From the sequence record MN850590.1: a stretch of DNA of 64,000 nucleotides. The stretch is one strand, 5' to 3'. A program made the translations under genes and the position numbers. Below are positions 1,756-64,000 of the stretch, one piece after another. Each line of letters opens with the position of its first letter. Positions within the stretch are counted from its first letter, which is position 1. The notes under the pieces were generated by a model. It had not been told where the DNA came from, did no database searches, and saw nothing but the letters and a program-made list of their open reading frames with translations. This DNA comes from Escherichia phage moha.

Positions 1756-2578
1756 GTATTATATAATTTATAAAATAACAAATATAATTAATTCAAAGGA
1801 ATATATCGGTGCGCATAGCACCGATAACATAAATGACGGTTATATGGGGTCAGGAACATTGATTCGTGCCGCTTTATTAAAATATGGTAGAAAAAATTTT
1901 AATAAAGAAATTTTACATGTTTTTGATAATGAAAAACAAATGTATGATAAAGAAGCTGAACTTGTAACCGAAGAGTATTGTCTAAAAGAAAATACATATA
2001 ATATTAAACCTGGTGGAAAAGGTGGAACTGCCTATGAACAGACACTTGAACATCGCCGTAAAAATAGTTTAGCAAATAAAGGTAAAAAGAGAACAGAAGA
2101 AACTAAAATAGCTATTTCACGTGCTTTAAAGAAATATAAACGTACGCCAGAGCATCAAGCAAATTTAAATAAAGCCGTAAGCATAGCTATGAAGCGAAAA
2201 GATGTTAGAAGTAAATTAGCTGGAGAGCGGTCTGAGAAAGATAAATTATCTATATCAAACGGTGTTAAAAAATATTACAATTCTTTGAGTGAAGAAGAAC
2301 GCGAACTTCATCGCAAGCGAATTATTGAAGGTAAAAAGAATTCTCCCATGTCATTGGAATCTAGACAAAAGCTTTCAAAAGCTTTAAAAGGGCTTCAAGT
2401 TGGTTCAAAAAATCCAATGTATGGAAAAATTTCTCCAACTAGCAAAACCGTTTCAGTTGACGGTATTAAATATGATTCAATTAAAAAGTGCTCAAATGCC
2501 ATAAAAGTTTCTAGACATCTTATACTAAAACGCTGTAATTCTACTGATGAAGCTTGGAAAAATTGGATATTATTATGA
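1748..2578 (+). CDS. Free-standing GIY-YIG family homing endonuclease
   Basis: N-terminal YIIYKITN...KEYIGAHS motif block, lysine-rich C-terminal half; overlaps nrdD stop (8 nt) and nrdG start (ATGA). Confidence 0.7.
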   Translation: MHRYYIIYKITNIINSKEYIGAHSTDNINDGYMGSGTLIRAALLKYGRKNFNKEILHVFDNEKQMYDKEAELVTEEYCLKENTYNIKPGGKGGTAYEQTLEHRRKNSLANKGKKRTEETKIAISRALKKYKRTPEHQANLNKAVSIAMKRKDVRSKLAGERSEKDKLSISNGVKKYYNSLSEEERELHRKRIIEGKKNSPMSLESRQKLSKALKGLQVGSKNPMYGKISPTSKTVSVDGIKYDSIKKCSNAIKVSRHLILKRCNSTDEAWKNWILL

Positions 2579-3045
2579 ATTATGATAGATTTTATCCTTG
2601 CGATTTTGTGAATGGCCCTGGTTGCAGGGTCGTTCTTTTCGTTACAGGTTGTTTGCATAAATGCGAAGGGTGTTATAATAAATCAACATGGAATGCTAGA
2701 AATGGTATTCCATTCACCGGAGAGACACTAGAACAATTAATTGAATGTTTGAATAATGATTATATAGAAGGATTGACTATAACCGGAGGTGACCCTCTCT
2801 ATCCTGATAACAGAGATGTGATTCACTCTGTGGTTCAAACTATTAAAAATCTTTATCCCAATAAAAGCATTTGGCTGTGGACAGGATATAAGTTTGAAGA
2901 TATTAAACAGCTAGAAATGCTTAAATATGTTGATGTTATTATTGATGGGAAGTATGAGAAAAATCTTCCGACTAAAAAGCTGTGGCGAGGATCAGATAAT
3001 CAGCGACTTTGGTCAAATACCGATGGGGTGTGGAAACATGATTAA
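2575..3045 (+). CDS. nrdG: Anaerobic RNR activating protein NrdG
   Basis: YPCDFVNGPG and CLHKCEGCYN (CxxxCxxC) motifs; ATG at 2575 preferred over TTG at 2554. Confidence 0.9.
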   Translation: MNYDRFYPCDFVNGPGCRVVLFVTGCLHKCEGCYNKSTWNARNGIPFTGETLEQLIECLNNDYIEGLTITGGDPLYPDNRDVIHSVVQTIKNLYPNKSIWLWTGYKFEDIKQLEMLKYVDVIIDGKYEKNLPTKKLWRGSDNQRLWSNTDGVWKHD

Positions 3046-14666: not shown

Positions 14667-17378
14667 ATGAAAGAATTTTACTTAACGGTTGAACAGATTG
14701 GTGATTCAATTTTTGAACGTTACATCGATTCTAATGGCCGTGAACGTACTCGTGAAGTAGAATATAAACCATCACTGTTTGCTCATTGTCCAGAAAGTCA
14801 GGCTACGAAATATTTCGATATCTACGGTAAGCCGTGTACTCGTAAGTTGTTCGCCAATATGCGTGATGCCTCCCAATGGATTAAACGCATGGAAGATATC
14901 GGTCTTGAAGCATTAGGTATGGACGATTTCAAATTGGCGTATTTGTCTGACACTTATAACTATGAAATCAAATACGACCATACAAAAATTCGTGTGGCTA
15001 ACTTCGACATCGAAGTAACATCTCCAGATGGGTTCCCTGAGCCGTCACAAGCAAAACATCCGATTGATGCTATCACCCATTATGACTCAATTGACGACAG
15101 GTTCTACGTATTTGATCTATTGAATTCTCCATATGGTAATGTAGAAGAATGGTCTATTGAAATCGCTGCTAAGCTTCAAGAACAAGGCGGTGATGAAGTT
15201 CCATCCGAAATTATCGATAAAATCATTTATATGCCGTTCGATAACGAAAAAGAATTGTTGATGGAATATCTCAACTTCTGGCAACAGAAAACTCCTGTCA
15301 TTTTGACTGGATGGAACGTTGAGTCATTTGATATTCCATATGTGTATAACCGAATCAAGAATATTTTTGGCGAATCTACTGCGAAACGTTTATCACCACA
15401 TCGTAAAACTCGTGTTAAAGTTATCGAAAACATGTATGGTTCTCGTGAAATCATTACATTGTTCGGTATCTCTGTTCTTGATTACATTGACCTTTACAAA
15501 AAATTCTCTTTTACCAATCAACCGTCGTATTCTCTGGATTACATTTCAGAATTTGAATTGAACGTTGGTAAACTGAAATATGACGGCCCTATTTCTAAGC
15601 TTCGTGAAAGCAATCACCAACGATATATTTCTTATAACATTATCGACGTGTATCGTGTATTGCAAATTGATGCTAAGCGTCAGTTCATCAACTTGAGTTT
15701 GGACATGGGTTATTATGCTAAGATACAGATTCAATCTGTGTTTAGCCCAATTAAAACATGGGATGCTATTATTTTTAATAGCCTTAAAGAGCAGAACAAG
15801 GTGATTCCACAAGGTCGTTCTCACCCTGTTCAACCTTATCCTGGCGCTTTTGTTAAGGAACCTATTCCAAATCGATACAAATATGTAATGAGTTTCGACC
15901 TTACATCTCTGTATCCAAGTATTATTCGCCAAGTGAATATTAGCCCAGAAACAATAGCAGGAACGTTTAAAGTAGCTCCATTGCATGATTATATTAACGC
16001 AATCGCTGAACGTCCTTCTGATGTGTACAGTTGTTCTCCTAACGGCATGATGTATTATAAAGACCGTGACGGTGTTGTTCCAACTGAAATCACTAAGGTC
16101 TTTAATCAACGTAAAGAACATAAAGGTTATATGCTTGCGGCTCAACGTAATGGTGAAATAATTAAAGAGGCACTGCATAATCCTAATCTTTCTGTTGACG
16201 AACCATTAGATGTTGATTATCGTTTCGACTTCAGTGATGAGATTAAAGAAAAGATTAAAAAGTTGTCTGCTAAATCTCTTAATGAAATGTTGTTTAGAGC
16301 TCAACGTACTGAAGTTGCAGGTATGACTGCACAGATTAACCGTAAATTGCTTATCAACTCACTTTATGGTGCACTTGGCAACGTTTGGTTCCGTTATTAT
16401 GATTTGCGTAATGCTACTGCAATCACAACATTCGGTCAAATGGCTTTACAGTGGATTGAACGTAAAGTTAATGAATATCTGAATGAAGTTTGTGGTACAG
16501 AAGGTGAAGCTTTCGTTCTTTATGGTGATACAGACTCTATTTACGTATCTGCTGATAAAATTATCGATAAGGTTGGTGAATCTAAATTCCGTGATACCAA
16601 CCATTGGGTAGACTTCTTAGATAAGTTCGCACGTGAACGTATGGAACCGGCTATTGATAGAGGTTTCCGTGAAATGTGTGAATACATGAACAATAAACAA
16701 CACTTAATGTTCATGGACCGAGAAGCTATCGCTGGTCCTCCGCTCGGTTCTAAAGGTATTGGTGGATTCTGGACTGGTAAGAAACGTTATGCATTAAACG
16801 TTTGGGATATGGAAGGTACTCGTTACGCTGAGCCTAAACTCAAAATCATGGGTCTAGAGACTCAGAAATCTTCGACTCCTAAAGCAGTACAGAAAGCTCT
16901 TAAAGAATGTATTCGTCGTATGCTTCAAGAAGGTGAAGAATCATTACAAGAATATTTTAAAGAGTTTGAAAAAGAATTCCGTCAATTGAATTATATTAGC
17001 ATCGCGTCGGTATCTTCTGCGAATAACATTGCTAAATATGACGTTGGTGGATTCCCTGGTCCTAAATGTCCGTTCCATATTCGTGGAATTCTGACGTATA
17101 ACCGGGCTATCAAAGGTAATATTGATGCTCCACAAGTTGTAGAAGGTGAAAAAGTATATGTTCTGCCTTTACGTGAAGGAAACCCATTCGGTGATAAATG
17201 TATCGCATGGCCTTCTGGTACTGAAATCACAGATTTAATTAAAGACGACGTACTTCATTGGATGGACTACACTGTTCTCCTTGAGAAGACATTTATTAAA
17301 CCACTTGAAGGATTCACATCAGCAGCGAAACTCGATTACGAGAAGAAAGCATCTCTGTTCGATATGTTCGATTTTTGA
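14667..17378 (+). CDS. 43: DNA polymerase gp43 (family B), RB69-type
   Basis: 903 aa; sequence matches RB69 gp43 as recalled from structural literature; exo motif FDIE, pol motifs DxxSLYPS and YGDTDS. Confidence 0.97.
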   Translation: MKEFYLTVEQIGDSIFERYIDSNGRERTREVEYKPSLFAHCPESQATKYFDIYGKPCTRKLFANMRDASQWIKRMEDIGLEALGMDDFKLAYLSDTYNYEIKYDHTKIRVANFDIEVTSPDGFPEPSQAKHPIDAITHYDSIDDRFYVFDLLNSPYGNVEEWSIEIAAKLQEQGGDEVPSEIIDKIIYMPFDNEKELLMEYLNFWQQKTPVILTGWNVESFDIPYVYNRIKNIFGESTAKRLSPHRKTRVKVIENMYGSREIITLFGISVLDYIDLYKKFSFTNQPSYSLDYISEFELNVGKLKYDGPISKLRESNHQRYISYNIIDVYRVLQIDAKRQFINLSLDMGYYAKIQIQSVFSPIKTWDAIIFNSLKEQNKVIPQGRSHPVQPYPGAFVKEPIPNRYKYVMSFDLTSLYPSIIRQVNISPETIAGTFKVAPLHDYINAIAERPSDVYSCSPNGMMYYKDRDGVVPTEITKVFNQRKEHKGYMLAAQRNGEIIKEALHNPNLSVDEPLDVDYRFDFSDEIKEKIKKLSAKSLNEMLFRAQRTEVAGMTAQINRKLLINSLYGALGNVWFRYYDLRNATAITTFGQMALQWIERKVNEYLNEVCGTEGEAFVLYGDTDSIYVSADKIIDKVGESKFRDTNHWVDFLDKFARERMEPAIDRGFREMCEYMNNKQHLMFMDREAIAGPPLGSKGIGGFWTGKKRYALNVWDMEGTRYAEPKLKIMGLETQKSSTPKAVQKALKECIRRMLQEGEESLQEYFKEFEKEFRQLNYISIASVSSANNIAKYDVGGFPGPKCPFHIRGILTYNRAIKGNIDAPQVVEGEKVYVLPLREGNPFGDKCIAWPSGTEITDLIKDDVLHWMDYTVLLEKTFIKPLEGFTSAAKLDYEKKASLFDMFDF

Positions 17379-17418: not shown

Positions 17419-18054
17419 ATGAAAACTACTCCTATTACTATCGCTATTGACGCAATCGTAAAACAAGCTTCTTCTTTGGCTACTATGGCCAAAGTAATTA
17501 GTCAAAACCCTGCTCGTTATAATGCTATTCTAGAAACTCTTCGACGCCCAGGACTTAGCAATTATGAAAGCCGAGTAATTATTACAGGTGTTGGTAAGAA
17601 TGCTAATATTGCAACTAAAGCTTCTGAGACATTTGCTTCACTCGGTATCCCAAGTATGTACTTGAACACCGGGCATTATTCTCACGGTGATGCAGGATTC
17701 ATTGCGCCTAATGATGTGTTGATTCATATTAGTCGTTCTGGTAAGACCGAAGAAATGATAGGTGTTGCTAAACATCTTCGTATGATTCGTCCGAACGTCA
17801 AACAGATTCTGTTGCATTGTAACCCAGACATTCCACAAGAAAATGAAGCCCTTTTTGATTACTCTTTCTGTACAGGCATCGCAGTAGAGGTTGACGAGAA
17901 CTCTTTAGCTCCGACTATGTCTACTACATTGTTGTTAGCGCTTATCGATACGTTTGCTATCAACCTTTCGTCTGAGCGTGGATTTACCTCTAATGACTTC
18001 CTTAAGTTCCACCCTGGTGGTGCACTAGGTGCCATGTTACGAGGCGAACAATGA
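17419..18054 (+). CDS. SIS-domain sugar-phosphate isomerase (KdsD/GutQ-like arabinose-5-phosphate isomerase, no CBS domains)
   Basis: ITGVGKNANIA, HISRSGKTEE, LAPTMSTT, HPGGALG blocks co-linear with KdsD SIS domain. Confidence 0.8.
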   Translation: MKTTPITIAIDAIVKQASSLATMAKVISQNPARYNAILETLRRPGLSNYESRVIITGVGKNANIATKASETFASLGIPSMYLNTGHYSHGDAGFIAPNDVLIHISRSGKTEEMIGVAKHLRMIRPNVKQILLHCNPDIPQENEALFDYSFCTGIAVEVDENSLAPTMSTTLLLALIDTFAINLSSERGFTSNDFLKFHPGGALGAMLRGEQ

Positions 18055-20364: not shown

Positions 20365-21525
20365 ATGAATACTTTTAAAATCGGAACGAATTTTGATTTA
20401 GCTCTTCTTGATAAAATCGTAGAGCTCAATAAAACCTATCCTAATAGCTTGATAAACGAAGTATATGGCTCTACAAGAGAAATGGCTTTTGTAGCAGCCA
20501 GACCTGATTTTAGGCTTCCTGACGTTGACAAAAAGATGTTAGAAGACTACGTTAAACGTTGTAACGAATTAGGTATTTGCTTTAACTATACACTCAACAC
20601 GATAAATCCTGGTTCAAAAAGAGAACTAGTTGAGTGGAAGAAGAAAGCTATTCAGGATTATGTTCAGTATCTTTGGTCAATAGGCGTATGGCGTATTACT
20701 ATCGCTAACCCTGTTGTTATGGAAATTGTTCGTGAAGTCAATAAAGATATTGAGATTGAAGTTTCAACAATTCTACATGTCGATGCTGTAACTCAAATAA
20801 AATACTTGCATGACCAATATAACATCAAAAAGGTCTGTTGCGGAATTCATAAGAACCGTTCAGTTTCTTTCCTGAAGCGTGCAGCAGAGTTTTGCAATAA
20901 GAACAATATAATATTTGAAGTTCTTGTAAATGAGTTCTGTTCTAATGCTGGTAAAGGGTATACAACACATTGTAGCTATCGTGACTCTTGCTATATTTTC
21001 CATAGTACTGATGTTACCGCTGATGATGCTAAATCCTTAAATGGATATCCAATGCAACACTGCATTAAAGCTCGTGATACAGACCCATTTAACTGGCTGA
21101 GAACTCGTTTTGTTCGTCCTCAAGATTTGAAACTTTATAATGATATTGGTATCACTCAATTCAAAGTTTCAGGACGTACAGGTAGCACAGACTACATTTT
21201 GAAAGTTCTTGAAGCATACGCTTCTGAAAAGTTTGAAGGTAATTTGTTAGAACTGTGGAAGCCTTTAGAGACTATTTTCACTCTTGAAAACGAAACTGAG
21301 TTTTCACATACAGTAAATATTGAAACCTCTTTGTTAGATGGCTTTTTAGAAAAAAGGTGGTTCAGACATCCAGATTTCGATTGTGCTAATGAAATCTGCG
21401 GGACGACGTGTACATATTGTGAAAGATATTATAAACGTCAATTATCTAAAAACGGGTTAGCAGAAAACTCTATATCTATTATTGATATAACTAACTCTGA
21501 TGACGCTTTGAGGTACCCGGAATGA
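20365..21525 (+). CDS. Cys-rich putative Fe-S enzyme (family unassigned; U32-like or radical-SAM-like)
   Basis: 386 aa; CX3CX2C (CGTTCTYC) near C-terminus plus internal Cys cluster EFCSNAGKGYTTHCSYRDSC. Confidence 0.55.
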   Translation: MNTFKIGTNFDLALLDKIVELNKTYPNSLINEVYGSTREMAFVAARPDFRLPDVDKKMLEDYVKRCNELGICFNYTLNTINPGSKRELVEWKKKAIQDYVQYLWSIGVWRITIANPVVMEIVREVNKDIEIEVSTILHVDAVTQIKYLHDQYNIKKVCCGIHKNRSVSFLKRAAEFCNKNNIIFEVLVNEFCSNAGKGYTTHCSYRDSCYIFHSTDVTADDAKSLNGYPMQHCIKARDTDPFNWLRTRFVRPQDLKLYNDIGITQFKVSGRTGSTDYILKVLEAYASEKFEGNLLELWKPLETIFTLENETEFSHTVNIETSLLDGFLEKRWFRHPDFDCANEICGTTCTYCERYYKRQLSKNGLAENSISIIDITNSDDALRYPE

Positions 21526-21802: not shown

Positions 21803-22519
21803 ATGGGAAAACATAACACAATGAAATATATCAAAGCCGCAGATTTTCAAACCGCATTTAAAGCAGTCAATCGTGAAATTTTAGAAAACCCGGAATTCGT
21901 AACTGATTCTCGTATTGGACGTTGTAATGAAATTGGGTCTATGACAGTAGTTGTTGACACTCCATCATCATTCAAAATGACCGACCCACGTATTAACCGC
22001 ATCTCTTATGAATATGCCGAAGACTTCTGGAAGTTTATGATTTCTGGTGGTACCAACGCAGAAGAAGCGTTTAAGGCATATCCTAATGTCGCTAAATTTA
22101 TTTCTAAACCAAAATCAGATGTTTTGCCGGCGAACTTCAACACTTTCTATGGTCCTCGCATTGCGGCTCAATTACCAGCTCTTCTAAAAGAACTTAAAGA
22201 GAAGCCTAACTCTCGAAGAGTTGTGTTCCAAATTCTAGAAAGTTCTGATCAGGCTTTGCTTGATTCGGACGAAACGCTTGAATATCCATGTACTGACTCA
22301 GTGACTTATTATATTCGTGATGGTAAGCTTTATACCCACTGTCATATGCGTTCTCAGAACTGTGCTGTTGTTATGCAGTTGGATTTTTATCTCCAAGGAA
22401 AATTACTTCATTATATCGCTAACGAATGTGGTGTAGAAGTTGGTGATTATACTCATACCATGGTAAGTGCCCATGTGTTTGAACGTGATTTTGATTATGT
22501 TAAAGGATTCCTTGACTAA
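21803..22519 (+). CDS. 42: ThyA-fold pyrimidine hydroxymethylase (dCMP hydroxymethylase-like)
   Basis: Candidate nucleophile Cys in EYPCTDSV and HMRSQN block typical of thymidylate synthase/dCMP hydroxymethylase family; position of T4 gene 42. Confidence 0.7.
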   Translation: MGKHNTMKYIKAADFQTAFKAVNREILENPEFVTDSRIGRCNEIGSMTVVVDTPSSFKMTDPRINRISYEYAEDFWKFMISGGTNAEEAFKAYPNVAKFISKPKSDVLPANFNTFYGPRIAAQLPALLKELKEKPNSRRVVFQILESSDQALLDSDETLEYPCTDSVTYYIRDGKLYTHCHMRSQNCAVVMQLDFYLQGKLLHYIANECGVEVGDYTHTMVSAHVFERDFDYVKGFLD

Positions 22520-23419: not shown

Positions 23420-23968
23420 ATGGCTAAAATTATTTTAGTAGACGGCCCAGATAATGCTGGTAAAACAACTTTCATTAATGACATAATGGAAATTAGTGAA
23501 AGATATGTAAAGATTGATTTCCCTAAACGAACAGTTGATGGACGTTTCGATGTTAAGTCTCGAAATGAAGTTGGCTGTTTCGAAACGATGTTGAATTATT
23601 TAGACCCTACTAAGATTTATCTGTTAGACCGTGGATATATTAGTAACTGGGTTTATGGACGTATTCGACAAGATGCGGACTCGGTTCTTGATGTTTATGA
23701 ACAGGATTATGTTCGTCTTTGCCAAAACCATGATGTGTTCACAATTATTTTAACACGTAACGAAATGACTGAAAGTTTTGAAGACGACCTTATTACTTTG
23801 TCTTCATTCGGTTTTAATACAGTCATTTCACATTTTGAAGAGTTTGCAATTCATAACAAAATCCAAACGTATCAATTACTTAATCATGATGGTGCTAACA
23901 AAGTTATAGGATTTAATGCAAGCGAACGTAATGATTTGATTACAGAAATCATCAAATGGGCTCGTTAA
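23420..23968 (+). CDS. P-loop nucleoside-monophosphate kinase-like protein (Tmk-like)
   Basis: Walker A DGPDNAGKTT; LDRGY...YG resembles thymidylate kinase DRY/lid region. Confidence 0.6.
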   Translation: MAKIILVDGPDNAGKTTFINDIMEISERYVKIDFPKRTVDGRFDVKSRNEVGCFETMLNYLDPTKIYLLDRGYISNWVYGRIRQDADSVLDVYEQDYVRLCQNHDVFTIILTRNEMTESFEDDLITLSSFGFNTVISHFEEFAIHNKIQTYQLLNHDGANKVIGFNASERNDLITEIIKWAR

Positions 23969-55878: not shown

Positions 55879-56538
55879 TTATTTAGCCCTTCCTAGTATT
55901 CGGACCGCTTGGTTGCATATAGCCGCTAAGCGATCTTCCTCAAGTATATTATTCCCCTTATACCAATACATCGTCACAGTTCCAGCATAGATGTTATCCA
56001 AATTAAAGTATGGACAACTATACATATAAGAAAGTTCGGCAGTCTTAGATTTTGTAGGCAAAAATGCAAATTCTGATTTAGATGAGAAATGACGGCCACT
56101 TAAATGAATTATATATTCATTGGCCGTTTTATCCACCGGGAATCCGCCAAGGGACTTTTCAGAAATTGTGCTAGGTAGTTTGCCTTCATAAGCTATAAGG
56201 TCGACAAAATAATTTAAGTTTTTAGGTCTGAAAGAATACACAGCACTAAAATCTGCACCAGATGAGATATGAACTATTTGCAGTTGTTCTAGAGCCGCAG
56301 ATTCAAAACGTAAAGCTCGTTCTTTTTGGATTATTTCAGTATAAGTATCATACTTAGCTCTTACATAATAATCCAGCAAAATACTTCCTTTGTACCATAT
56401 TAGTGCCATTAGGAACAAAAGAATAATTACCGCTACTCGGGACATTAAAACCTTTCCAGTAGCGTTATCTTTGAAAATACGATCTAGCAACCCAAATAGA
56501 ATATCACTAGGCGAAAATGACACTTTTGGTGTTGCCAT
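55879..56538 (-). CDS. t: Holin T
   Basis: 219 aa; T4 holin-like (SFSPSDILFG..LDRIFKDNATGKV; single TM; YMYSCPYFNLDNIYAG). Confidence 0.9.
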   Translation of the reverse strand: MATPKVSFSPSDILFGLLDRIFKDNATGKVLMSRVAVIILLFLMALIWYKGSILLDYYVRAKYDTYTEIIQKERALRFESAALEQLQIVHISSGADFSAVYSFRPKNLNYFVDLIAYEGKLPSTISEKSLGGFPVDKTANEYIIHLSGRHFSSKSEFAFLPTKSKTAELSYMYSCPYFNLDNIYAGTVTMYWYKGNNILEEDRLAAICNQAVRILGRAK

Positions 56539-56547
56539 AATACCTCC

Positions 56548-57099
56548 TTACTTAAAGATATTTATAATCGCTTTGATAATAGATTTGTTTTCAAGGTCAG
56601 GGAATTTAGGGAATTCACCGCCAAGATGTTCATGTTTTTCTAAAAGGGCAAAGAATTTTTTGAGCTCTTTAAATTTTCGTTTTTCTTCTCTATTAGCAAC
56701 CTCTGCGTCAATAAGAGAACTTAAAACACTGAATAATTTATAGAGTTCATGAATTTTCTTATCACGTTGAACTACGCGTTTATATGCTTCATCTTCCTTC
56801 CACCCGTCACCGGTCCAAATGTCAAATTCACCAGGTTCTTCTGTAGTAACATTTTGAAGAGCACCTGGAGTGTCAATAACAATTTTTTGCTTATCATAAG
56901 TCCATACTGTTTTTCCACGATGGTCTTCAACATACACCCATTCTTGTTCGCGTTCATCAAATAAAACAGCATAGCCTTCTTTAGGGTCTAAAGGTTTTTT
57001 AGATGTCGAGTGAGCTGGAAGACCCATACCTTTAATCGGTTTGTAATTTTCTTCTTTGTAAAATTCTTTAGTGTCAAAATAATAATGATATATTTTCAT
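56548..57099 (-). CDS. 38: Tail-fibre assembly protein gp38 (T4-type, 183 aa)
   Basis: N-terminus MKIYHYYFDTKEFYKEENYKP as in T4 gp38 as recalled. Confidence 0.85.
   Translation of the reverse strand: MKIYHYYFDTKEFYKEENYKPIKGMGLPAHSTSKKPLDPKEGYAVLFDEREQEWVYVEDHRGKTVWTYDKQKIVIDTPGALQNVTTEEPGEFDIWTGDGWKEDEAYKRVVQRDKKIHELYKLFSVLSSLIDAEVANREEKRKFKELKKFFALLEKHEHLGGEFPKFPDLENKSIIKAIINIFK
56559..56566 (-). promoter_or_regulatory. T4-type late promoter for gene t
   Basis: TATAAATA on - strand inside the 3' end of gene 38, followed by AAGGAGG RBS and ATG of t. Confidence 0.6.
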
Positions 57100-57126
57100 A
57101 TTTAGAAGGGGCCGAAGCCCCTCTCC
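57100..57126 (-). promoter_or_regulatory. Split Shine-Dalgarno hairpin in gene 38 translation initiation region
   Basis: On - strand RNA: GGAGAG, then GGGGC-UUCG-GCCCC hairpin, then UUCUAAAUAUG; hairpin would bring SD near AUG. Confidence 0.5.
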
Positions 57127-60100
57127 TTATGCTAAACGAACGATATAGTTAAAAGCAACGTTTTTAACTGTGTTTTCTGTATTTCCTGTGGCATTTACAG
57201 TTATTGTATGTCCATGGGAACCAATCGCTACCGAATGAGAGTGGGCACCAATACCTACAGTATGTGTATGGGCACCGATACCCACAGTATGAGCATGGTT
57301 ACCTGTGGTACTTGTAGTTCCTGACCAACTATGGGTGTGGGCACCATCTGAAGAAGTTTTGGCCATATTCGACGATGCAGTAGCACCGCTCACGGTTGCA
57401 GTGAATTTAGCGTTGCCGTTTGGACCCGCACTATTGTATCCATCATAGAATATGCTAGTGGGTATGCCGCCTTGTACCTGAGGACCTGAACGCGCGTGTT
57501 GGTGCGCACCAGCGGAACTAGTATTACCACTCACTGTATGGCTATGGTTGCCAGTGGTATTACTGGTCTTAGTACCATAATCAAAGCTTGAAGTCGTTTT
57601 GCTACCGTAATCAAAACTAGAAGTGGTCTTAGTACCCAAATCTGTGCTTGATGCACTTGCACTATGGCTATGTGACTTAACACCGTCTGCTTCTGTACTC
57701 AATACATCACGCCCAGATGGTTTACCCTTAATAGTTTGCCCACGCATATCAGGAATAGTACCTGTTGGATACGCTGCCGCTAGTTTAGGATATGCAGACT
57801 TATCAAAGGTTTGACCTTCCATTAAAGCGAACCCGGCTGGAACTGAATCACTTGGCCATGGAATCGGAGCACCGACTGGATAAGGTATTTGAGCATCAGA
57901 ATACATCATATACACTTGACCAACGAGATGACCAGCGGGTAATTCTGTTACTGGTGTTTGATATCCACCATTAAGTCCAATTACCGAAATATAACGGGTA
58001 TTTTCTGTGGCGTCATATTCAACTATAAGTTTGTCTGCATAAGTCCCAGCATACAGATAAACGTCATAATCATCACCGGAGGTATTAATTGTTGCTATAT
58101 TAGTAAATCCATTACCCGTGCGCCCCCATAAAGTGGCGTTAATACCTTTAGGATTGTTATTACTGGTACGAAGAACTACTTCAGTAATTGTAGCCTGTTC
58201 TGGTGAATTGGCATTATATCCATTACCACCTATAATCTTAAATTGGACGGTAGAAACTGATTGTGGCATAGTTACAGTAGCAAATTTATACCATCCTGCA
58301 GTTGAACTACCGGACCAAGTTCCGACCTTAACTCTACGTTCTAAAGTTGTGTTCAGGTTAGCAAAATTACCAGAACCACCTGTGATGTTACCATCGGTTC
58401 CAATCTGGGTTGAACCTATTCTAAGAGGTTTAGCTATATCAACCGTATCAGAGTTTAATGCAATACCATGGGAGTAGGTGTAACTATGCATACGAACGAC
58501 GTTTCCGCCATCGCCAATACCCAAATACCATTTTGTGACATCTGCTTTACGTCCTTGGATGAAGTTAGAAGACTCTTGTGTTGGAGCATTTATTCTAATA
58601 GCATCTGATGCTGTATTTATTGTTATACGCTGACCTGCTGTAGTACCGGATGCTTCTACTTTAAATCTACCGCCACCGATATCTACATCATGATCCATGG
58701 AAACTTTACCATTACTTAATGCAATATAGAACGGACGTAAATTAGAAATACCACCTGTTTCACCAGCGTTCTGCGGAGTTGGAATAATATAAAGCTTATC
58801 TTCAGAACGACGGAAAATAGCACCATATTCGGCATTCCAAATTCTTAATGCATCTGCTGTTCCACCAAATTTAGCTTGTCCGTTTACAGATAATCCATTA
58901 TTTGCAACTAAACTTGATTCACTAACAATAGAACCGGCCGATATAATACCACCACCCACACGTAAAGCGCCGGAAATTCTAAATTGGAGAGAACCGACAG
59001 TTTCAGAACCTGTTGGAGCTAAACGTTGAGAATAAAAATGATAGCCCTGGCCGTCATACAATTCAAATACGGTTTCACGATTACCGGCAGTGGAGTCGAA
59101 TGCATTACCCCAAGCTTTCATAGTTAAATAACTTTTATTTTGTCCTGCACGGGACCCGGCATTCCACTGGATAGTTCTCGAGCCATCAACTTTGCTAGGG
59201 GCGCCAAATTTAAGTCCTGCAGTATTATTAGAACTATTTAAAAATAATTCGTTGTCCAATTTAACAGGTTGGATAGAAGAAATAGTGCCATCAGCATAAA
59301 ACTGTACATTATTAGAGCCAGTTACCAATTTCAAAATACCCGGGTTAATTTCCATACCTTCCTGTGTATTAATGTTGGTTTGGCCTTTACCACGGAAATA
59401 ATGGGAAAATTTACCGCCAGAATTATATCCAATGTGGGTTTGACCATCACCTGCATTGTTTGTATCAGCCTGGGTTTGAACCGATAAAAGCGCGGCGTTG
59501 ATTCCAGGCATGGTCCAGGTTCCGCCTTGGTCTTCTGAGCGTCCAAATAACGCTTTACGAGTACTACGGAAACTGTCAGGTGTAATAGAAGCAACAGAAT
59601 TCCAATTACCTACTAAATCATAAACGCCTTGCTTAATATATTTTAAACCAGTTGCAGCATCGCCCAAAGCAATATATCTTTCTCCCATTGGAGTAGGAGA
59701 GCCGTAGTTGTTAGTATTTTCGTCAGCAGTAATTGTGCCAATAGCAAGTGAACGACGTAATACCATTGCTCCATCATTACGAAGACCCATTAATTTAGTA
59801 GTAAGTGTATTTCCGGTCCACCAAGAAATTTCATCATTCTTACCAGTTTGAGCTGAAGCGATTTCATGGTAAATGGTTCCACCTGATTTAGCTCGAACTT
59901 TACGAAGATAGTTTATACCATTTTCTTCACCTGTTCCAGGATAAACATATTGAACTAATGACTGCGAATCGTATTGTCCAAATGCTTTTGTGTCTAAAAC
60001 AATGGTTTTCGTATTAACTTGTGGAGCAGAAACTATACCATTAGCGGAGTTAATATTGCCTGACGCAGAAATATTACCTTTGCTGACAAATAAATCACCA

Positions 60101-60618
60101 GTGTCAACTTGGAAATTACCATTACGATTAAAAGTCCAATATTTCGAATCCCCAGTTTCATCAATATAATGGAACTTAAAACTGCCTTCAGCAACCAATG
60201 TACCCGCTGAAAACGTACCATCTTTATAACGTTGCTTAATGAGTGGATGATATTCTGAAATAGAAGTAGTTGAACTTAAATCTGTAAAGATAGGAGCTTT
60301 ATTTAGGTGTTGATTTGCCCACGCGCCATTACCAGCTGTTTTAGGTAAAAATTCAATATATTTTCCTGCATAAACAAACTGATTTCCATTGAGATTATAT
60401 GTGCCGTTTTGTAAATAATCACCATTTTGAGTTACATTACCGTTAATATCCCCGCCCTTAGCAAAGCCTAGGCTAATAATATTACCGAGGTCATCTTTAG
60501 TAAAAAGAGTTCGATCTTTTAAGTTTATCGCTAATTCGCCTTCGGCTAATTGTGCTGCAGTAGGATTAACTCCTGCCACTTTGCTTCTTTTAAATTGTAT
60601 CTGTTTTAATGTAGCCAT
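57127..60618 (-). CDS. 37: Long tail fibre distal subunit gp37
   Basis: 1163 aa; C-terminal His-x-His repeat region ([24 protein letters not shown]); T4 synteny. Confidence 0.9.
57180..57330 (-). repeat. His-x-His repeat-encoding segment of gene 37
   Basis: Repeated GGCACC(A/G)ATACC...ATG(G/A)GTATG units encoding GxHxHxV repeats. Confidence 0.6.
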
Positions 60619-60626
60619 AAGTCCTC

Positions 60627-61289
60627 TTAATAATAGCCGAAATCTTGAACAGAATCTTTAATTACAATCTGGTCGAAACGAGGAACATGATTAGCCTCAG
60701 ACGCCGGATTCTGTGAGAAAAAGTTTGGTGCTGTTAAAGTACCAGTCATGGTATCGCCTTTACGCAATACACGAGAATTTGCGTTATCCGTAACAATATT
60801 TATTCGTCCATCAACATAATCTTTTCTTGTGAGATCATTTGCTGCAACCGGAGCAGTAGCGTTAGAACGGACAGGACCAATTGCATAAAAACCGCCCTTA
60901 GTGCTGATATCACCGGTACGAGCGTTAATTACAACAGTTCGGTCTGCTGAACCTTGTGATGACTTAAAACCAATACCATTCCACGAAACGATGTCAATAT
61001 TTGCCATATCAAAAGTAGCTGCATCACCGTTACCTGGATAAACACCACACTGTTGACTACTACCTACAGTAGGAACATGTACTCCTCCATTAAATCGAAC
61101 AGTTGCAGCGTAAGTACCACCATTAGCTTTAGAAACGAAATCGTTATCAGCCGCTTGTGGTTTATTATATTCTGAATAGAGTTTAAACGTTTTATACAGG
61201 ACGTCATCACCTGCTGGCATTAAAGGGAAATTACCTTGATGCCATATGACAGCACCGCCAGTTGTACTACCAGCTTTTAAATCGGCCAT
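60627..61289 (-). CDS. 36: Long tail fibre hinge protein gp36
   Basis: 220 aa, position between 35 and 37; TATAAATA late promoter upstream. Confidence 0.8.
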
Positions 61290-61313
61290 AGTTGTCTCCT
61301 TATATGTATACCA

Positions 61314-61321
61314 TATTTATA
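61314..61321 (-). promoter_or_regulatory. T4-type late promoter for gene 36
   Basis: TATAAATA on - strand about 25 nt upstream of gene 36 ATG with AAGGAGA RBS. Confidence 0.6.
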
Positions 61322-61346
61322 CAAAAATGGGAGACCGAAGTCTCCC
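61319..61346 (-). terminator. Intrinsic terminator after gene 35
   Basis: GGGAGAC-UUCG-GUCUCCC followed by AUUUUUGU on - strand RNA. Confidence 0.6.
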
Positions 61347-61351
61347 TAAAT

Positions 61352-62479
61352 TTATTCTGATGCTTCTTTAAATTCTTGTCCAAATACCTTACCAGTATCA
61401 GTTGAAGATTGAGTAGGTAGTGTCATTATGTCTGGGGCACTTAAAGATTCTGAAACATAATTTACACGAATACCATTTATACCAAACTCCGCAGGTTTTG
61501 AAACGCTTCCATTGCATGATACTTCAGTTAATATAACGTTTCTTAATCCACCTTGCCCGACTGGAGCTGTACGATAACAATAAATCGTGAACCCGTCAGC
61601 ACCAGCAGGAATTTCTATGTAGTCTTCATATATCTTCCATTCACCTGCGGCCCCATCAAAGTTTGTATCCTTAAATGAAATAGGTGAAGTAGAAGGAGAT
61701 TTAAAGAAACGAATAGAAAGTCGTGTCGTCCCTTGTGCTAACAAATCGGCATCTGCCATTAGTTGGAATTTCATATAAAGGAAATCTCCAGGCTTCAATT
61801 TATACCCAGCGAGAGGTGTAATAATGGACGGTGTAGGCATCCTTTTAATTTCATTATTAGTACCTCCAACGGCAGATAAAAATGTGTCTGACGATTCATA
61901 CGTACGACTAGGGAAGCCGGTAGCACCAATATCATCTATAGTGTCGTACACAACATCAAGTGGTGTACTATAGTCGGTTGAAGTTTTCTTATTACTATAC
62001 TTAATATGTTCTAGTGCTATAGCATTCTTACCAGAAATATAAAATGCAGAATAAGAAATGTCCACTATATTTAAAACTTGTTGAGCTAATGGAATAACAG
62101 AACTCCCAGCTTTAGTAAACCATGTGAGAACTTCTGGTGGAAAGTTTGTTTTAGAGTTAGTAACAAGAGCAAATATAAAATTTGAAGCATATGTGTCCAT
62201 GTAAGTAACAAATGCACTTGACGTGGCGTCGTTTTCAGTAGAGAAATTATATGTCTTAGATTCAACTACTGCACCCGTTGTAGGATTTATTACACGAACG
62301 TTTAATCCAACGGAAAAAACCTGGGACCCAAGTGGATTATCCTGGAACTTAATATAAGCAGGAGATGTTGATAGCGGACAAGAGCCCGCTATGCTTAATT
62401 TAAATCGTACTGAATTGCTTTCCGATAAAAATGGCGTTTGGACGTATCCTTGTCCAAACTTAGCCATAAATTTTTCCAT
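61352..62479 (-). CDS. 35: Long tail fibre hinge protein gp35
   Basis: 375 aa, position between 34 and 36. Confidence 0.8.
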   Translation of the reverse strand: MEKFMAKFGQGYVQTPFLSESNSVRFKLSIAGSCPLSTSPAYIKFQDNPLGSQVFSVGLNVRVINPTTGAVVESKTYNFSTENDATSSAFVTYMDTYASNFIFALVTNSKTNFPPEVLTWFTKAGSSVIPLAQQVLNIVDISYSAFYISGKNAIALEHIKYSNKKTSTDYSTPLDVVYDTIDDIGATGFPSRTYESSDTFLSAVGGTNNEIKRMPTPSIITPLAGYKLKPGDFLYMKFQLMADADLLAQGTTRLSIRFFKSPSTSPISFKDTNFDGAAGEWKIYEDYIEIPAGADGFTIYCYRTAPVGQGGLRNVILTEVSCNGSVSKPAEFGINGIRVNYVSESLSAPDIMTLPTQSSTDTGKVFGQEFKEASE

Positions 62480-62487
62480 AATACCTC

Positions 62488-64000
62488 TTATTCAATCCAC
62501 TCGAATTTAACAGATTTATTCACAGGGTCCGGAATAATGCGGACGTTACCAATCCTTAAGAAATCCCTTATTGTCAAGTTTCCGATTGTTGCATTATCAG
62601 AAGGTAAAGCACCAATATCAGATGGCTGAGGAGGGTTACCCCCATCAAATACTTGAACAAAACTTGACCAAGAATTTTTAGTTTTCTGCCATGTACGAGT
62701 CCAACGGGTTGTACGTGCTTCTGGGGTTGTTGGATAAGTAATCCAATCTTGGTAAAGTGAATCAAGTGTGTTACCAAACTGAGTCAGTGTACCAGGAGAT
62801 TTAACTTCTTCGCCACGTTCTAAGTATGGAAGCCCAGTCACTTCATTAGTTTTTTCAACCATTTTAAAATAACCTGGGAACTGGTTATAAGTGGCTGAAT
62901 CGTTAATATCAATTGACCAGAATCCTACATTATCAGATGTTGGCGCACGGGTATATAAATCGGATGTTTTAGTACCCTGAGAACGAATTCTTGAGTTAAC
63001 AGTCAAACCGCCAGAATTTATAGTAGCACCTTTGGCAATGATTAAGCTTTCACCAATCGTAACTTGACCGGATTGATTATTAATTGATAATGGACGTAAT
63101 CCATTAAATCCACCGGTCTGATCACCAGATGCAGTAAGCATAAAATATGTGCTGCCGCCATCATTGCGAATAAAGAATCCGTAATCACCACTAATTGCTC
63201 TGAAAGCATTTGCAGACTTGCTAATGAATTCGCCATTGGCTGTAACTGAACGTCCAAATGTTGCAATGCCATTCGCATTTAACGTGCCTGAAGCGTTAAC
63301 ATTTATTGGCATCAAAGTACCATTAATGCTAAACGTTATATTCCCAGCTTTATTACGTTGAGAATAAAAGTGATTAGATGTTTCATCACCAACTTCAAAT
63401 ACAGTAGAACGTGTTGTATCTGAACCACCACCACCAAATTCATTTCCCCAAACTCTGATAGTCATCGTCTGTGCTGGGTTAGTTCCAGTTTGAGGTCCTT
63501 TCTCAAAAATCAGACGAGTTGCCGTTCCAGTATTAGAAATAGTTAATGTACTATTTGCCGAAACTGAACCACCAAACGTAGCAGTACTAGTTGATACAAG
63601 AGGGGCACTCAGATTCGTTTGTTGGGTTAAGGTTAGTGAACCATTAACCGTCTGTGCAATGTCCCTACGAATGAACTGAGATGAATCTAGGCCATCTAAT
63701 AAATTACTATCTACGGCTTTAGCTTTCAATGGCAAATAGTTAGCAAGTACACGGTTTAATTCATATGGTGATACTGCATAGCTATTTTTCTCATATGATT
63801 CTAAAGGTTGTGTTGAACCAACTGTATCATTACCAACAAATGTAATAGAACCGGATGAAGTTTTAACGAATCCACGAATCGCCGTAGTAGCAGCCCATGT
63901 TGGTTCAGACTGGACAATCCATTTTAAATTCTTAGGAGATACAGCAGTATTAGCAGAAGTTCCTGTTACAGTTTCAGCCTGAGTAGCAACCTTAATTACG
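62488..64000 (-). CDS. 34: Long tail fibre proximal subunit gp34 (C-terminal part; N-terminus outside window)
   Basis: Frame open to window edge with no stop; Gly/Ser/Thr/Asn-rich fibre composition; T4 synteny. Confidence 0.8.
   Translation of the reverse strand, partial: VIKVATQAETVTGTSANTAVSPKNLKWIVQSEPTWAATTAIRGFVKTSSGSITFVGNDTVGSTQPLESYEKNSYAVSPYELNRVLANYLPLKAKAVDSNLLDGLDSSQFIRRDIAQTVNGSLTLTQQTNLSAPLVSTSTATFGGSVSANSTLTISNTGTATRLIFEKGPQTGTNPAQTMTIRVWGNEFGGGGSDTTRSTVFEVGDETSNHFYSQRNKAGNITFSINGTLMPINVNASGTLNANGIATFGRSVTANGEFISKSANAFRAISGDYGFFIRNDGGSTYFMLTASGDQTGGFNGLRPLSINNQSGQVTIGESLIIAKGATINSGGLTVNSRIRSQGTKTSDLYTRAPTSDNVGFWSIDINDSATYNQFPGYFKMVEKTNEVTGLPYLERGEEVKSPGTLTQFGNTLDSLYQDWITYPTTPEARTTRWTRTWQKTKNSWSSFVQVFDGGNPPQPSDIGALPSDNATIGNLTIRDFLRIGNVRIIPDPVNKSVKFEWIE

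Follow-up and report, generated by a model that had tools for sequence, protein, structure and literature searches.

How can a phage that replaces every cytosine of its DNA by way of an oxygen-requiring enzyme replicate in the anoxic intestine? The question, which was not found raised in the literature on arabinosyl-5-hydroxycytosine (He et al. 2026 and Mahler et al. 2025 lay outside the scope), comes up at a locus of Escherichia phage moha (MN850590.1), of which a stretch of 64,000 nucleotides, here called the window, was analysed. Within its DNA modification cluster, close to the gene of the oxygen-requiring enzyme, lies a gene for a cysteine-rich protein of the U32 family. With confidence somewhat better than even, this protein is read here as a prephenate-dependent hydroxylase that works without O2 on C5 of a cytosine deoxynucleotide, most likely converting dCMP to 5-hydroxy-dCMP, and if that is true it would explain how such a gut phage manages without oxygen. 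The gene and the parts of it on which the argument turns are these:

20365..21525, + strand: gene of the U32-family protein, orthologue of RB69p050 (NP_861740.1), 386 amino acids (aa), ATG start
20938..21063, + strand: internal cysteine set C192-X10-C203-X5-C209-X23-C233, on its sequence the candidate counterpart of the [4Fe-4S] cluster site of U32 proteins
21160..21177, + strand: FKVSGR (residues 266-271), counterpart of the U32 signature FKIEGR, from alignment to RlhA SFKIEGR and TrhP LKIEGR
21382..21420, + strand: C-terminal CX4CX3CX2C (C340, C345, C349, C352), a candidate second metal or iron-sulfur (Fe-S) site specific to the subfamily

At the nucleotide level the DNA of the window is 98-99% identical to many Mosigvirus genomes, and the U32 protein is 99.5% identical to its RB69 orthologue, so that the window belongs to an RB69-like relative of T4. 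A first-pass annotation made from the DNA letters had picked out exactly this open reading frame (ORF), 20365-21525, as cysteine-rich, and had seen in its N-terminal region a loose resemblance to U32 proteins. The resemblance reflects true homology, and it extends beyond the N-terminus. Pfam Peptidase_U32 (PF01136) matches residues 94-286 with 42.2 bits against a gathering cut-off of 22.4 (E 7e-11), and PF01136 matches are precomputed on nearly all homologues. The comparison with U32 profiles and folds that the annotation had proposed recovered the U32 core: hhalign aligned the family profile with E. coli RlhA, TrhP, UbiU and UbiV over 210 columns at 96% probability (E 2.6e-9), and the fold comparison points to the TIM-barrel-like U32 fold. 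In the alignment C203 and C209 fall on RlhA C169 and C176, the canonical cluster ligands 1 and 2, and FKVSGR falls on the KIEGR of RlhA, TrhP and UbiU, which is the (F/L)KIEGR signature. U32 membership is thus confirmed by Pfam, by profile-profile comparison and by fold.

Within the family the phage protein stands apart. Its best NCBIfam match, UbiU, reaches 18.5 bits where the cut-off is 440, no DUF3656 or Peptidase_U32_C-type domain was detected by Pfam beside the U32 core, and a PDB sequence search gave no meaningful match. A profile built from alignment A1 (37 homologues, 46-87% identity) retrieved 465 representatives at E <= 1e-30 and 1,669 at E <= 1e-3 from the 1.84 billion searched, which places the protein in a separate U32 subfamily; nearly all of these relatives are about 350-380 aa long and match over their full length. 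Judged by sequence, then, it is a member of a compact, distinct U32 subfamily and no equivalog of any named U32 protein.

The cysteines are conserved and not incidental. There are 13 of them, 3.4% of residues against a pooled 1.1% (binomial P ~4e-4), which ranks the protein second in cysteine richness among the 64 window ORFs of at least 100 aa; the only one above it lies at 2554-3045 (+) and has 6 cysteines in 163 aa (3.7%). Both motifs quoted in the first-pass annotation, EFCSNAGKGYTTHCSYRDSC (C192, C203, C209) and CGTTCTYC (C345, C349, C352), are present. Ten cysteines are invariant in A1, C340, C345, C349 and C352 among them. Among 119 divergent U32 representatives, C192 is kept in 99%, C233 in 100% and the four C-terminal cysteines in 80-92%, and K267 and R271 of the KxxGR motif are 100% conserved. 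The CX4CX3CX2C motif falls beyond the stretch that aligns with canonical U32 proteins. The phage protein probably binds an Fe-S cluster.

A radical S-adenosylmethionine (SAM) enzyme, to which the CX3CX2C had seemed to hint, was rejected: the triplet is present at residues 345-352, but near the C-terminus and within the four-cysteine motif, and not in the N-terminal part of a radical SAM barrel, where it would be expected together with SAM-binding motifs, no Radical_SAM profile matched in Pfam or NCBIfam, and the fold is that of U32.

What the cluster as a whole does has been established in RB69, whose DNA contains arabinosylated 5-hydroxycytosine and not hydroxymethylcytosine (Lee et al., NAR 2026, PMC13326640). 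The neighbouring ThyA-like enzyme, which had been taken for a hydroxymethylase, corresponds to gp48 of that work, a flavin-bound 5-hydroxy-dCMP synthase that takes its oxygen from 18O2 (PMC13326640). This creates an oxygen problem for a phage in anoxic hosts, which a U32 hydroxylase would solve, and since the neighbour is an O2-dependent cytosine hydroxylase, the U32 protein is a probable parallel route and not an additional step. That RB69, with U32, and DLP3, which lacks it, both make arabinosyl-5-hydroxycytosine (PMC13326640) fits a redundant route rather than extra chemistry.

The gene had been judged the least understood of its cluster, and the published record agrees. RB69p050 figures in PMC13326640 in a table entry alone, as "Sugar or heterocycle reductase" from a match to the 5d88 fold, and is absent from the text; the Discussion mentions pyrimidine hydroxylation of the RlhA and TrhP/TrhO types with no link to it. 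Lee et al. cite He et al. 2026 and Mahler et al. 2025, yet label the protein by fold alone. A full-text search, with those two papers outside its scope, found no link of U32, chorismate mutase or prephenate to phage 5-hydroxycytosine. The chemistry itself has precedents: the formation of 5-hydroxycytidine in 23S rRNA requires RlhA, a U32 protein, and depends on Fe-S biogenesis and on prephenate as well (PMC5727448), TrhP provides a prephenate-dependent, O2-independent route to 5-hydroxyuridine (ho5U) in tRNA beside the O2-dependent TrhO (PMC6599085), and prephenate is the oxygen donor for UbiU/V (PMC10990095).

A link to prephenate supply came from related phages. In Enterobacter phage Entb_45 the stop codon of U32 is overlapped by a 79-aa ORF for a type II chorismate mutase, which matches CM_2 with 40.9 bits where the cut-off is 27. 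The product of chorismate mutase is prephenate, and U32 is the only family within these clusters with a known need for it. Homologues of this mutase occur in 56 phage records, those listed sitting in the U32 and ThyA-like neighbourhood, and the hosts include Klebsiella, Serratia, Yersinia, Enterobacter, Edwardsiella, Erwinia, Proteus, Pectobacterium, Providencia, Morganella, Kosakonia, Shewanella and E. coli (EcS1). Among 15 T4-like loci drawn from the viral collection, the mutase directly follows U32 in 13, ahead of the ThyA-like gene wherever that order is kept, and all the phage mutases keep the AroQ catalytic residues R11, R28, K39, S84 and Q88. In Shewanella phage Thanatos-1 (L014, 423-6240) the order has become AfhE, an unassigned gene, ThyA-like, glycosyltransferase, kinase, U32 and chorismate mutase, with no SIS gene detected in the cluster, and despite this rearrangement U32 and the mutase are still an overlapping pair. 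The Thanatos paper offered no hypothesis for the origin of the hydroxyl and described the sugar as a deoxypentose, not arabinose. The other known phage use of prephenate is carboxymethylation by CmoA/CmoX, of which the annotated T4-like clusters showed no homologue.

The same association recurs at a distance, in 40-55%-identical U32 relatives from uncultured, often jumbo, phages:

L054:7079-8194; L040:4411-5430; L043:4321-5373; L044:4332-5384; L029:7080-7823: DAHP synthase-chorismate mutase (DAHPS-CM) fusion or DAHP synthase alone, beside U32

DAHPS-like fragments lie near U32 in L046, L048 and L051 as well, and in all a chorismate mutase or DAHPS-CM adjoins U32 in at least 8 of 23 distant loci. 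These genes suggest a viral boosting of shikimate-pathway flux towards prephenate. For L054, a reading of the DAHP_synth_1 neighbour as a KDO8P synthase working with the SIS isomerase was rejected, as it scores 164 bits as DAHP synthase against 56 and is fused to CM_2.

Distant loci also show U32 where no ThyA homologue is near. Among relatives of 45-55% identity, a ThyA-like gene lies within 6 kb either side of U32 in just 1 of 31 loci. The arrays, often of overlapping genes, take the forms kinase, GT1-like glycosyltransferase and U32; or GT1, SIS, AfhE, (kinase), (DAHPS-CM), HAD and U32; or U32, (DAHPS), GT1 and AfhE. Homologues of the window arabinosyltransferase adjoin U32 in these phages, and kinase homologues adjoin both. 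Base-replacement modules of phages have a standard layout of a deoxynucleotide (dNTP) pyrophosphatase, an enzyme modifying the deoxynucleoside monophosphate (dNMP), a dNMP kinase and a DNA glycosyltransferase. On L066, a 44-kb phage contig, there are a primase, a dUTPase_2-type pyrophosphatase, a thymidylate-kinase-like protein, a glycosyltransferase, U32 and Pol III alpha, and neither ThyA nor ThyX occurs in 21 kb; the glycosyltransferase is a full-length homologue of the window arabinosyltransferase (E 2e-10, common motif PIxSMRSYETG). U32 here holds the slot of the ThyA homologue.

Other copies keep similar company. Those of megaphages adjoin dCMP deaminase, thymidylate kinase, UDG and MazG. 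On megaphage-sized contigs of up to 466 kb (L001:9447-11939, L004:8279-10601) a dCMP deaminase and U32 precede a conserved ORF of 248-254 aa, beside a module in which Pol III alpha is either fused with UDG or lies beside it, and which also has thymidylate kinase, MazG/dUTPase_2, radical SAM/SPASM and a weakly glycosyltransferase-like protein of 402 aa. A bacterial copy is accompanied by NT5C, dNK, PnuC and a deoxyribosyltransferase. It belongs to an operon (L002:7135-17428, also L003) on a bacterial contig with a dockerin-bearing GH43 nearby, which comprises GP88, a methyltransferase, a 265-aa ORF, U32, NT5C, PnuC, dNK, an AlaX-like protein, radical SAM/SPASM, a second weak U32-like protein, a 29-aa ORF and a nucleoside deoxyribosyltransferase, and which may be a cellular pathway for modified deoxynucleosides or an island of phage origin. 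Neither the ORFs that follow U32 in the megaphages nor the 265-aa ORF had a family match. For the distant representatives P0150 and P0210 the short contigs gave no informative gene neighbourhood.

U32 membership, the conservation of the cysteines and these gene neighbourhoods were established directly; the recurrent associations with chorismate mutase or DAHP synthase, and with a dNMP kinase and glycosyltransferase, suggest hydroxylation. For the phage protein we infer Fe-S binding, prephenate use, substrate and independence of O2. In the mechanism proposed, by analogy with UbiU-UbiV, one cysteine set would hold the [4Fe-4S] cluster of the catalytic domain, and the C-terminal four-cysteine motif would form another centre, either redox-active or metal-binding. 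The oxygen added at C5 of cytosine would come from prephenate, giving 5-hydroxy-dCMP, the same intermediate that the adjacent ThyA-like enzyme makes with O2 and flavin; once phosphorylated and built into DNA, it would be arabinosylated. Related phages bring a chorismate mutase of their own, and the present Mosigvirus would rely on PheA/TyrA of its host. In this way a phage with all its cytosine replaced would possess aerobic and anaerobic routes to one base, with U32 as the backup. A wider proposition, that a dedicated phage U32/prephenate hydroxylase makes 5-hydroxypyrimidine deoxynucleotides without O2, as the anaerobic twin of the ThyA-type synthase in RB69-like phages and as the only hydroxylase in many uncultured phages, including jumbo and megaphages with DAHPS-CM, strikes us as evenly balanced.

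Several observations weigh against the hydroxylase. None of the U32 hydroxylases has been reconstituted in vitro (PMC10990095), and the known ones for nucleic acids act on RNA polymers, not mononucleotides (PMC5727448, PMC6599085). The level at which the phage protein would act (dCMP, DNA or dUMP) is read from kinase adjacency only. In the profile alignment no cysteine occupies canonical Fe-S ligand positions 3 and 4, the spacing being CX10CX5CX23C against the canonical four-cysteine CX6CX15CX3-4C, and C203 is kept in 57% and C209 in 64% of the 119 divergent representatives; from the sequence, C233 and C192 are likely substitutes for ligands 3 and 4, comparable to UbiU C232. No chorismate mutase was found in the window, other Mosigviruses or Klebsiella phage Marfa, which makes the prephenate link indirect for the window itself. 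The absence of ThyA-like genes in the distant phages refers to the 6-10 kb around U32. Finally, the Dhakaviruses, phages of E. coli, have the pathway without U32 or chorismate mutase.

This last point bears on how the genes are distributed. The AfhE-like pathway marker is present in 368 phage records, 57 of them from Acinetobacter phages, and U32 in 221 records; the U32 genera named are Enterobacterales and Shewanella, and as Acinetobacter is not among the ten listed, at most 3 of the 57 AfhE-bearing Acinetobacter phages could have U32. Acinetobacter phage DLP2 and Pseudomonas phage PspYZU05 carry SIS, AfhE, HAD, ThyA-like, glycosyltransferase and kinase genes with nothing between HAD and ThyA-like, so that U32, with or without the mutase, behaves as a discrete cassette. 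Its composition varies by genus: in Marfa (L016 6001-7918) U32 is followed directly by the ThyA-like gene, with neither a mutase nor the small ORF p79 described below. Dhakavirus Bp7 (L012 6971-11151) has AfhE, HAD, kinase, ThyA-like and glycosyltransferase genes and no SIS, U32 or mutase. Since it infects E. coli, the cassette is not obligatory in facultatively anaerobic hosts, a strict rule of anaerobe hosts only was rejected, and the correlation with host lifestyle is imperfect.

The best-placed alternative, unlikely as we judge it, keeps the chemistry and changes the substrate, to cytosine in polymeric DNA after replication or to dUMP, yielding 5-hydroxy-dUMP. The polymer substrates of the characterised relatives speak for it, and so does the dCMP deaminase, which makes dUMP, adjoining the megaphage copies and that of L065. 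The phage protein has, against this, just the U32 core and the cysteine motif and lacks the C-terminal RNA-binding-type domains of RlhA and TrhP, dNMP-kinase-like genes are consistently adjacent to U32, the phage destroys dCTP so that little cytosine should enter its DNA, and in RB69 DNA only modified cytidines have been reported (PMC13326640).

Next comes another Fe-S or redox role, new for U32, such as delivering reducing equivalents to the flavin of the ThyA-like enzyme or a different reaction consuming prephenate or chorismate. Two conserved cysteine sets, a flavoenzyme gene alongside and the unresolved mechanism of U32 enzymes (PMC10990095) are in keeping with it. Most of the distant loci, where U32 has no ThyA-like partner, and the synthases of Acinetobacter and Pseudomonas phages, which work without U32, make it improbable.

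The published label, a sugar or heterocycle reductase, or some other sugar-tailoring enzyme in NDP-arabinose biosynthesis (PMC13326640 Table 1), fares worse, and we consider it quite improbable. In T4-like phages U32 does sit among sugar-nucleotide genes, and the deoxypentose of Thanatos would suit such an enzyme. The label is founded on the 5d88 fold match alone, and the SIS, bifunctional and HAD proteins already complete the route from ribulose 5-phosphate (Ru5P) through arabinose 5-phosphate (Ara5P), arabinose 1,5-bisphosphate (Ara1,5P2) and arabinose 1-phosphate (Ara1P) to UDP-arabinose (UDP-Ara) without U32 (PMC13326640). DLP3, DLP2 and PspYZU05 have the arabinose pathway and no U32, kinase-glycosyltransferase-U32 modules exist without sugar-nucleotide genes, and the chorismate mutase link would be left unexplained. 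To our knowledge, moreover, no U32 protein is a reductase. As U32 occurs in clusters devoid of sugar-nucleotide genes and the base is the same arabinosyl-5-hydroxycytosine with or without it, a sugar role is unlikely; of the first-pass suggestion that the enzyme modifies a base or a sugar, it is the base that fits the mutase, DAHPS, kinase and glycosyltransferase contexts.

An RNA hydroxylase that sets ho5U or ho5C in host or phage tRNA or rRNA and tunes translation during infection is very improbable: RlhA and TrhP, the closest characterised relatives, modify RNA, but the DUF3656 and Peptidase_U32_C-type domains are missing from the Pfam result, the NCBIfam equivalog scores are far under their cut-offs, and in several phage lineages U32 lies, its gene often overlapping those beside it, within modules for DNA modification and replication. 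A true peptidase or collagenase, as GenBank and PHROG annotations ("peptidase", "collagenase-like protease") have it, is scarcely credible, given that these annotations are inherited from the family name, that the genetically characterised members are hydroxylation factors (PMC5727448, PMC6599085, PMC10990095), that the conserved features are cysteines and a KxxGR motif, and that the genes around it belong to nucleotide metabolism.

The genes of the cluster in the window all lie on the + strand:

14667-17378, + strand: gp43 DNA polymerase
17419-18054, + strand: SIS protein, arabinose-5-P isomerase, NDP-arabinose supply (Pfam SIS; function from PMC13326640)
18236-19921, + strand: AfhE-like kinase and nucleotidyltransferase, 561 aa, NDP-arabinose supply (Pfam NTP_transferase; PMC13326640)
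19906-20307, + strand: AfhF-like HAD phosphatase, NDP-arabinose supply (TIGR01689; PMC13326640)
21522..21761, + strand: p79 (phrog_8601), 79 aa, no cysteine, possible accessory partner, conserved after U32 in several phages
21803..22519, + strand: ThyA-like 5-hydroxy-dCMP synthase of the RB69 gp48 type (Pfam Thymidylat_synt; PMC13326640)
22519..23418, + strand: DNA arabinosyltransferase 1 of the RB69 gp46:47 type, 299 aa, acceptor the 5-OH group (PMC13326640 Table 1)
23420..23968, + strand: thymidylate-kinase-like nucleotide kinase of the RB69 gp45 type (P-loop sequence; PMC13326640 Table 1)
24067 onward, + strand: uvsX

The ThyA-like gene begins about 280 bp downstream of U32, and the U32 stop codon overlaps the start codon of p79 (ATGA). 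A scan for promoters and terminators found nothing above chance and no + strand terminator-like site inside the cluster. The AfhE-like (561 aa) and glycosyltransferase (299 aa) genes are intact single ORFs in the window. In the RB69 reference they are split, as ORF052/053 and ORF046/047, for which Lee et al. blame sequencing errors (PMC13326640), an account that the intact ORFs support. Elsewhere in the window the GC skew changes sign near 56 kb, where the cumulative skew peaks (about 56000-64000), and this probably marks a switch of the predominant transcription direction or gene strand.

The coupled ORF p79 carries a conserved motif, YYxDAFxHSxxGxIxAExxRxINxAK, and comes after U32 in Mosigvirus, Tegunavirus (TG1, fHe-Yen9-01), Pectobacterium PM2, Serratia 92A1 and L030. 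A reading of p79 as a cryptic AroQ chorismate mutase was rejected, with no Pfam match (CM_2), an hhalign probability below 1% and no significant BLASTP similarity to the Entb_45 enzyme; a PDB sequence search with p79 gave no meaningful match, and Yersinia phage TG1 carries both p79 and a true chorismate mutase. It may be an accessory subunit of U32. With no mutase of its own and p79 unrelated to one, the Mosigvirus would depend on host PheA/TyrA.

If the hydroxylase reading is true, it would carry prephenate-dependent hydroxylation by U32 proteins beyond RNA and quinones, into DNA precursors and into viruses. On the wider proposition, this would be the first U32 enzyme acting on DNA precursors, and glycosylated 5-hydroxypyrimidine DNA would be widespread in anoxic viromes. 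The DNA modification would differ with oxygen, and hence so would sensitivity to restriction, CRISPR and type IV systems, which would bear on phage therapy with Mosigviruses. As a small and soluble enzyme of one subunit that acts on a mononucleotide, it could serve U32 enzymology as an attractive model, and the combination of the U32 subfamily with chorismate mutase or DAHPS, a glycosyltransferase and a dNMP kinase offers a genomic marker for hydroxypyrimidine-modified DNA in uncultured phages. A viral pair of aerobic and anaerobic cytosine hydroxylases would surprise specialists. The U32 family and its general chemistry are known already; what appears to be new is the distinct subfamily with its extra C-terminal cysteine motif, the deoxynucleotide or DNA target, the viral setting and the pairing with an O2-dependent ThyA-type enzyme.

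Among the nearest known systems is RlhA (YdcP), which is required for ho5C2501 in E. coli 23S rRNA. It has a homologous U32 core (hhalign 96%), the same first two cluster cysteines and the same KxxGR signature, and the proposed outcome of the phage enzyme would likewise be hydroxylation of cytosine at C5. RlhA differs in its 653 aa, its DUF3656, its own C-terminal cysteine region and its ribosomal RNA precursor substrate, whereas the phage protein has 386 aa, a CX4CX3CX2C of its own, displaced ligands 3 and 4 and a deoxynucleotide or DNA-modification context. The only solved U32 structure that was matched, Mk0906 (PDB 5d88), is 12-14% identical, and its 247-residue core does not cover the C-terminal ~100 residues with the four-cysteine motif. 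The 5-hydroxy-dCMP synthases RB69 gp48, DLP3 gp80 and that of HY126 have the product and the arabinosylation pathway that are proposed for U32; they have a ThyA fold, flavin, O2 as the oxygen source and an experimentally shown function, while the fold and cofactors of U32 are unrelated to theirs and its function is a prediction. In design there are close parallels in the host E. coli, TrhP with TrhO for ho5U34 of tRNA and UbiU-UbiV with UbiI/H/F for ubiquinone, where an organism able to live both in oxygen and in its absence reaches one product by two routes, a prephenate-dependent, O2-independent U32 route and an O2-dependent one (PMC6599085, PMC10990095). UbiU-UbiV is a heterodimer and the phage enzyme a single polypeptide with two cysteine sets. 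In the phage the O2-dependent partner is a flavin-using homologue of ThyA, both genes are viral and lie in one cluster, and the proposed target is a precursor of DNA.

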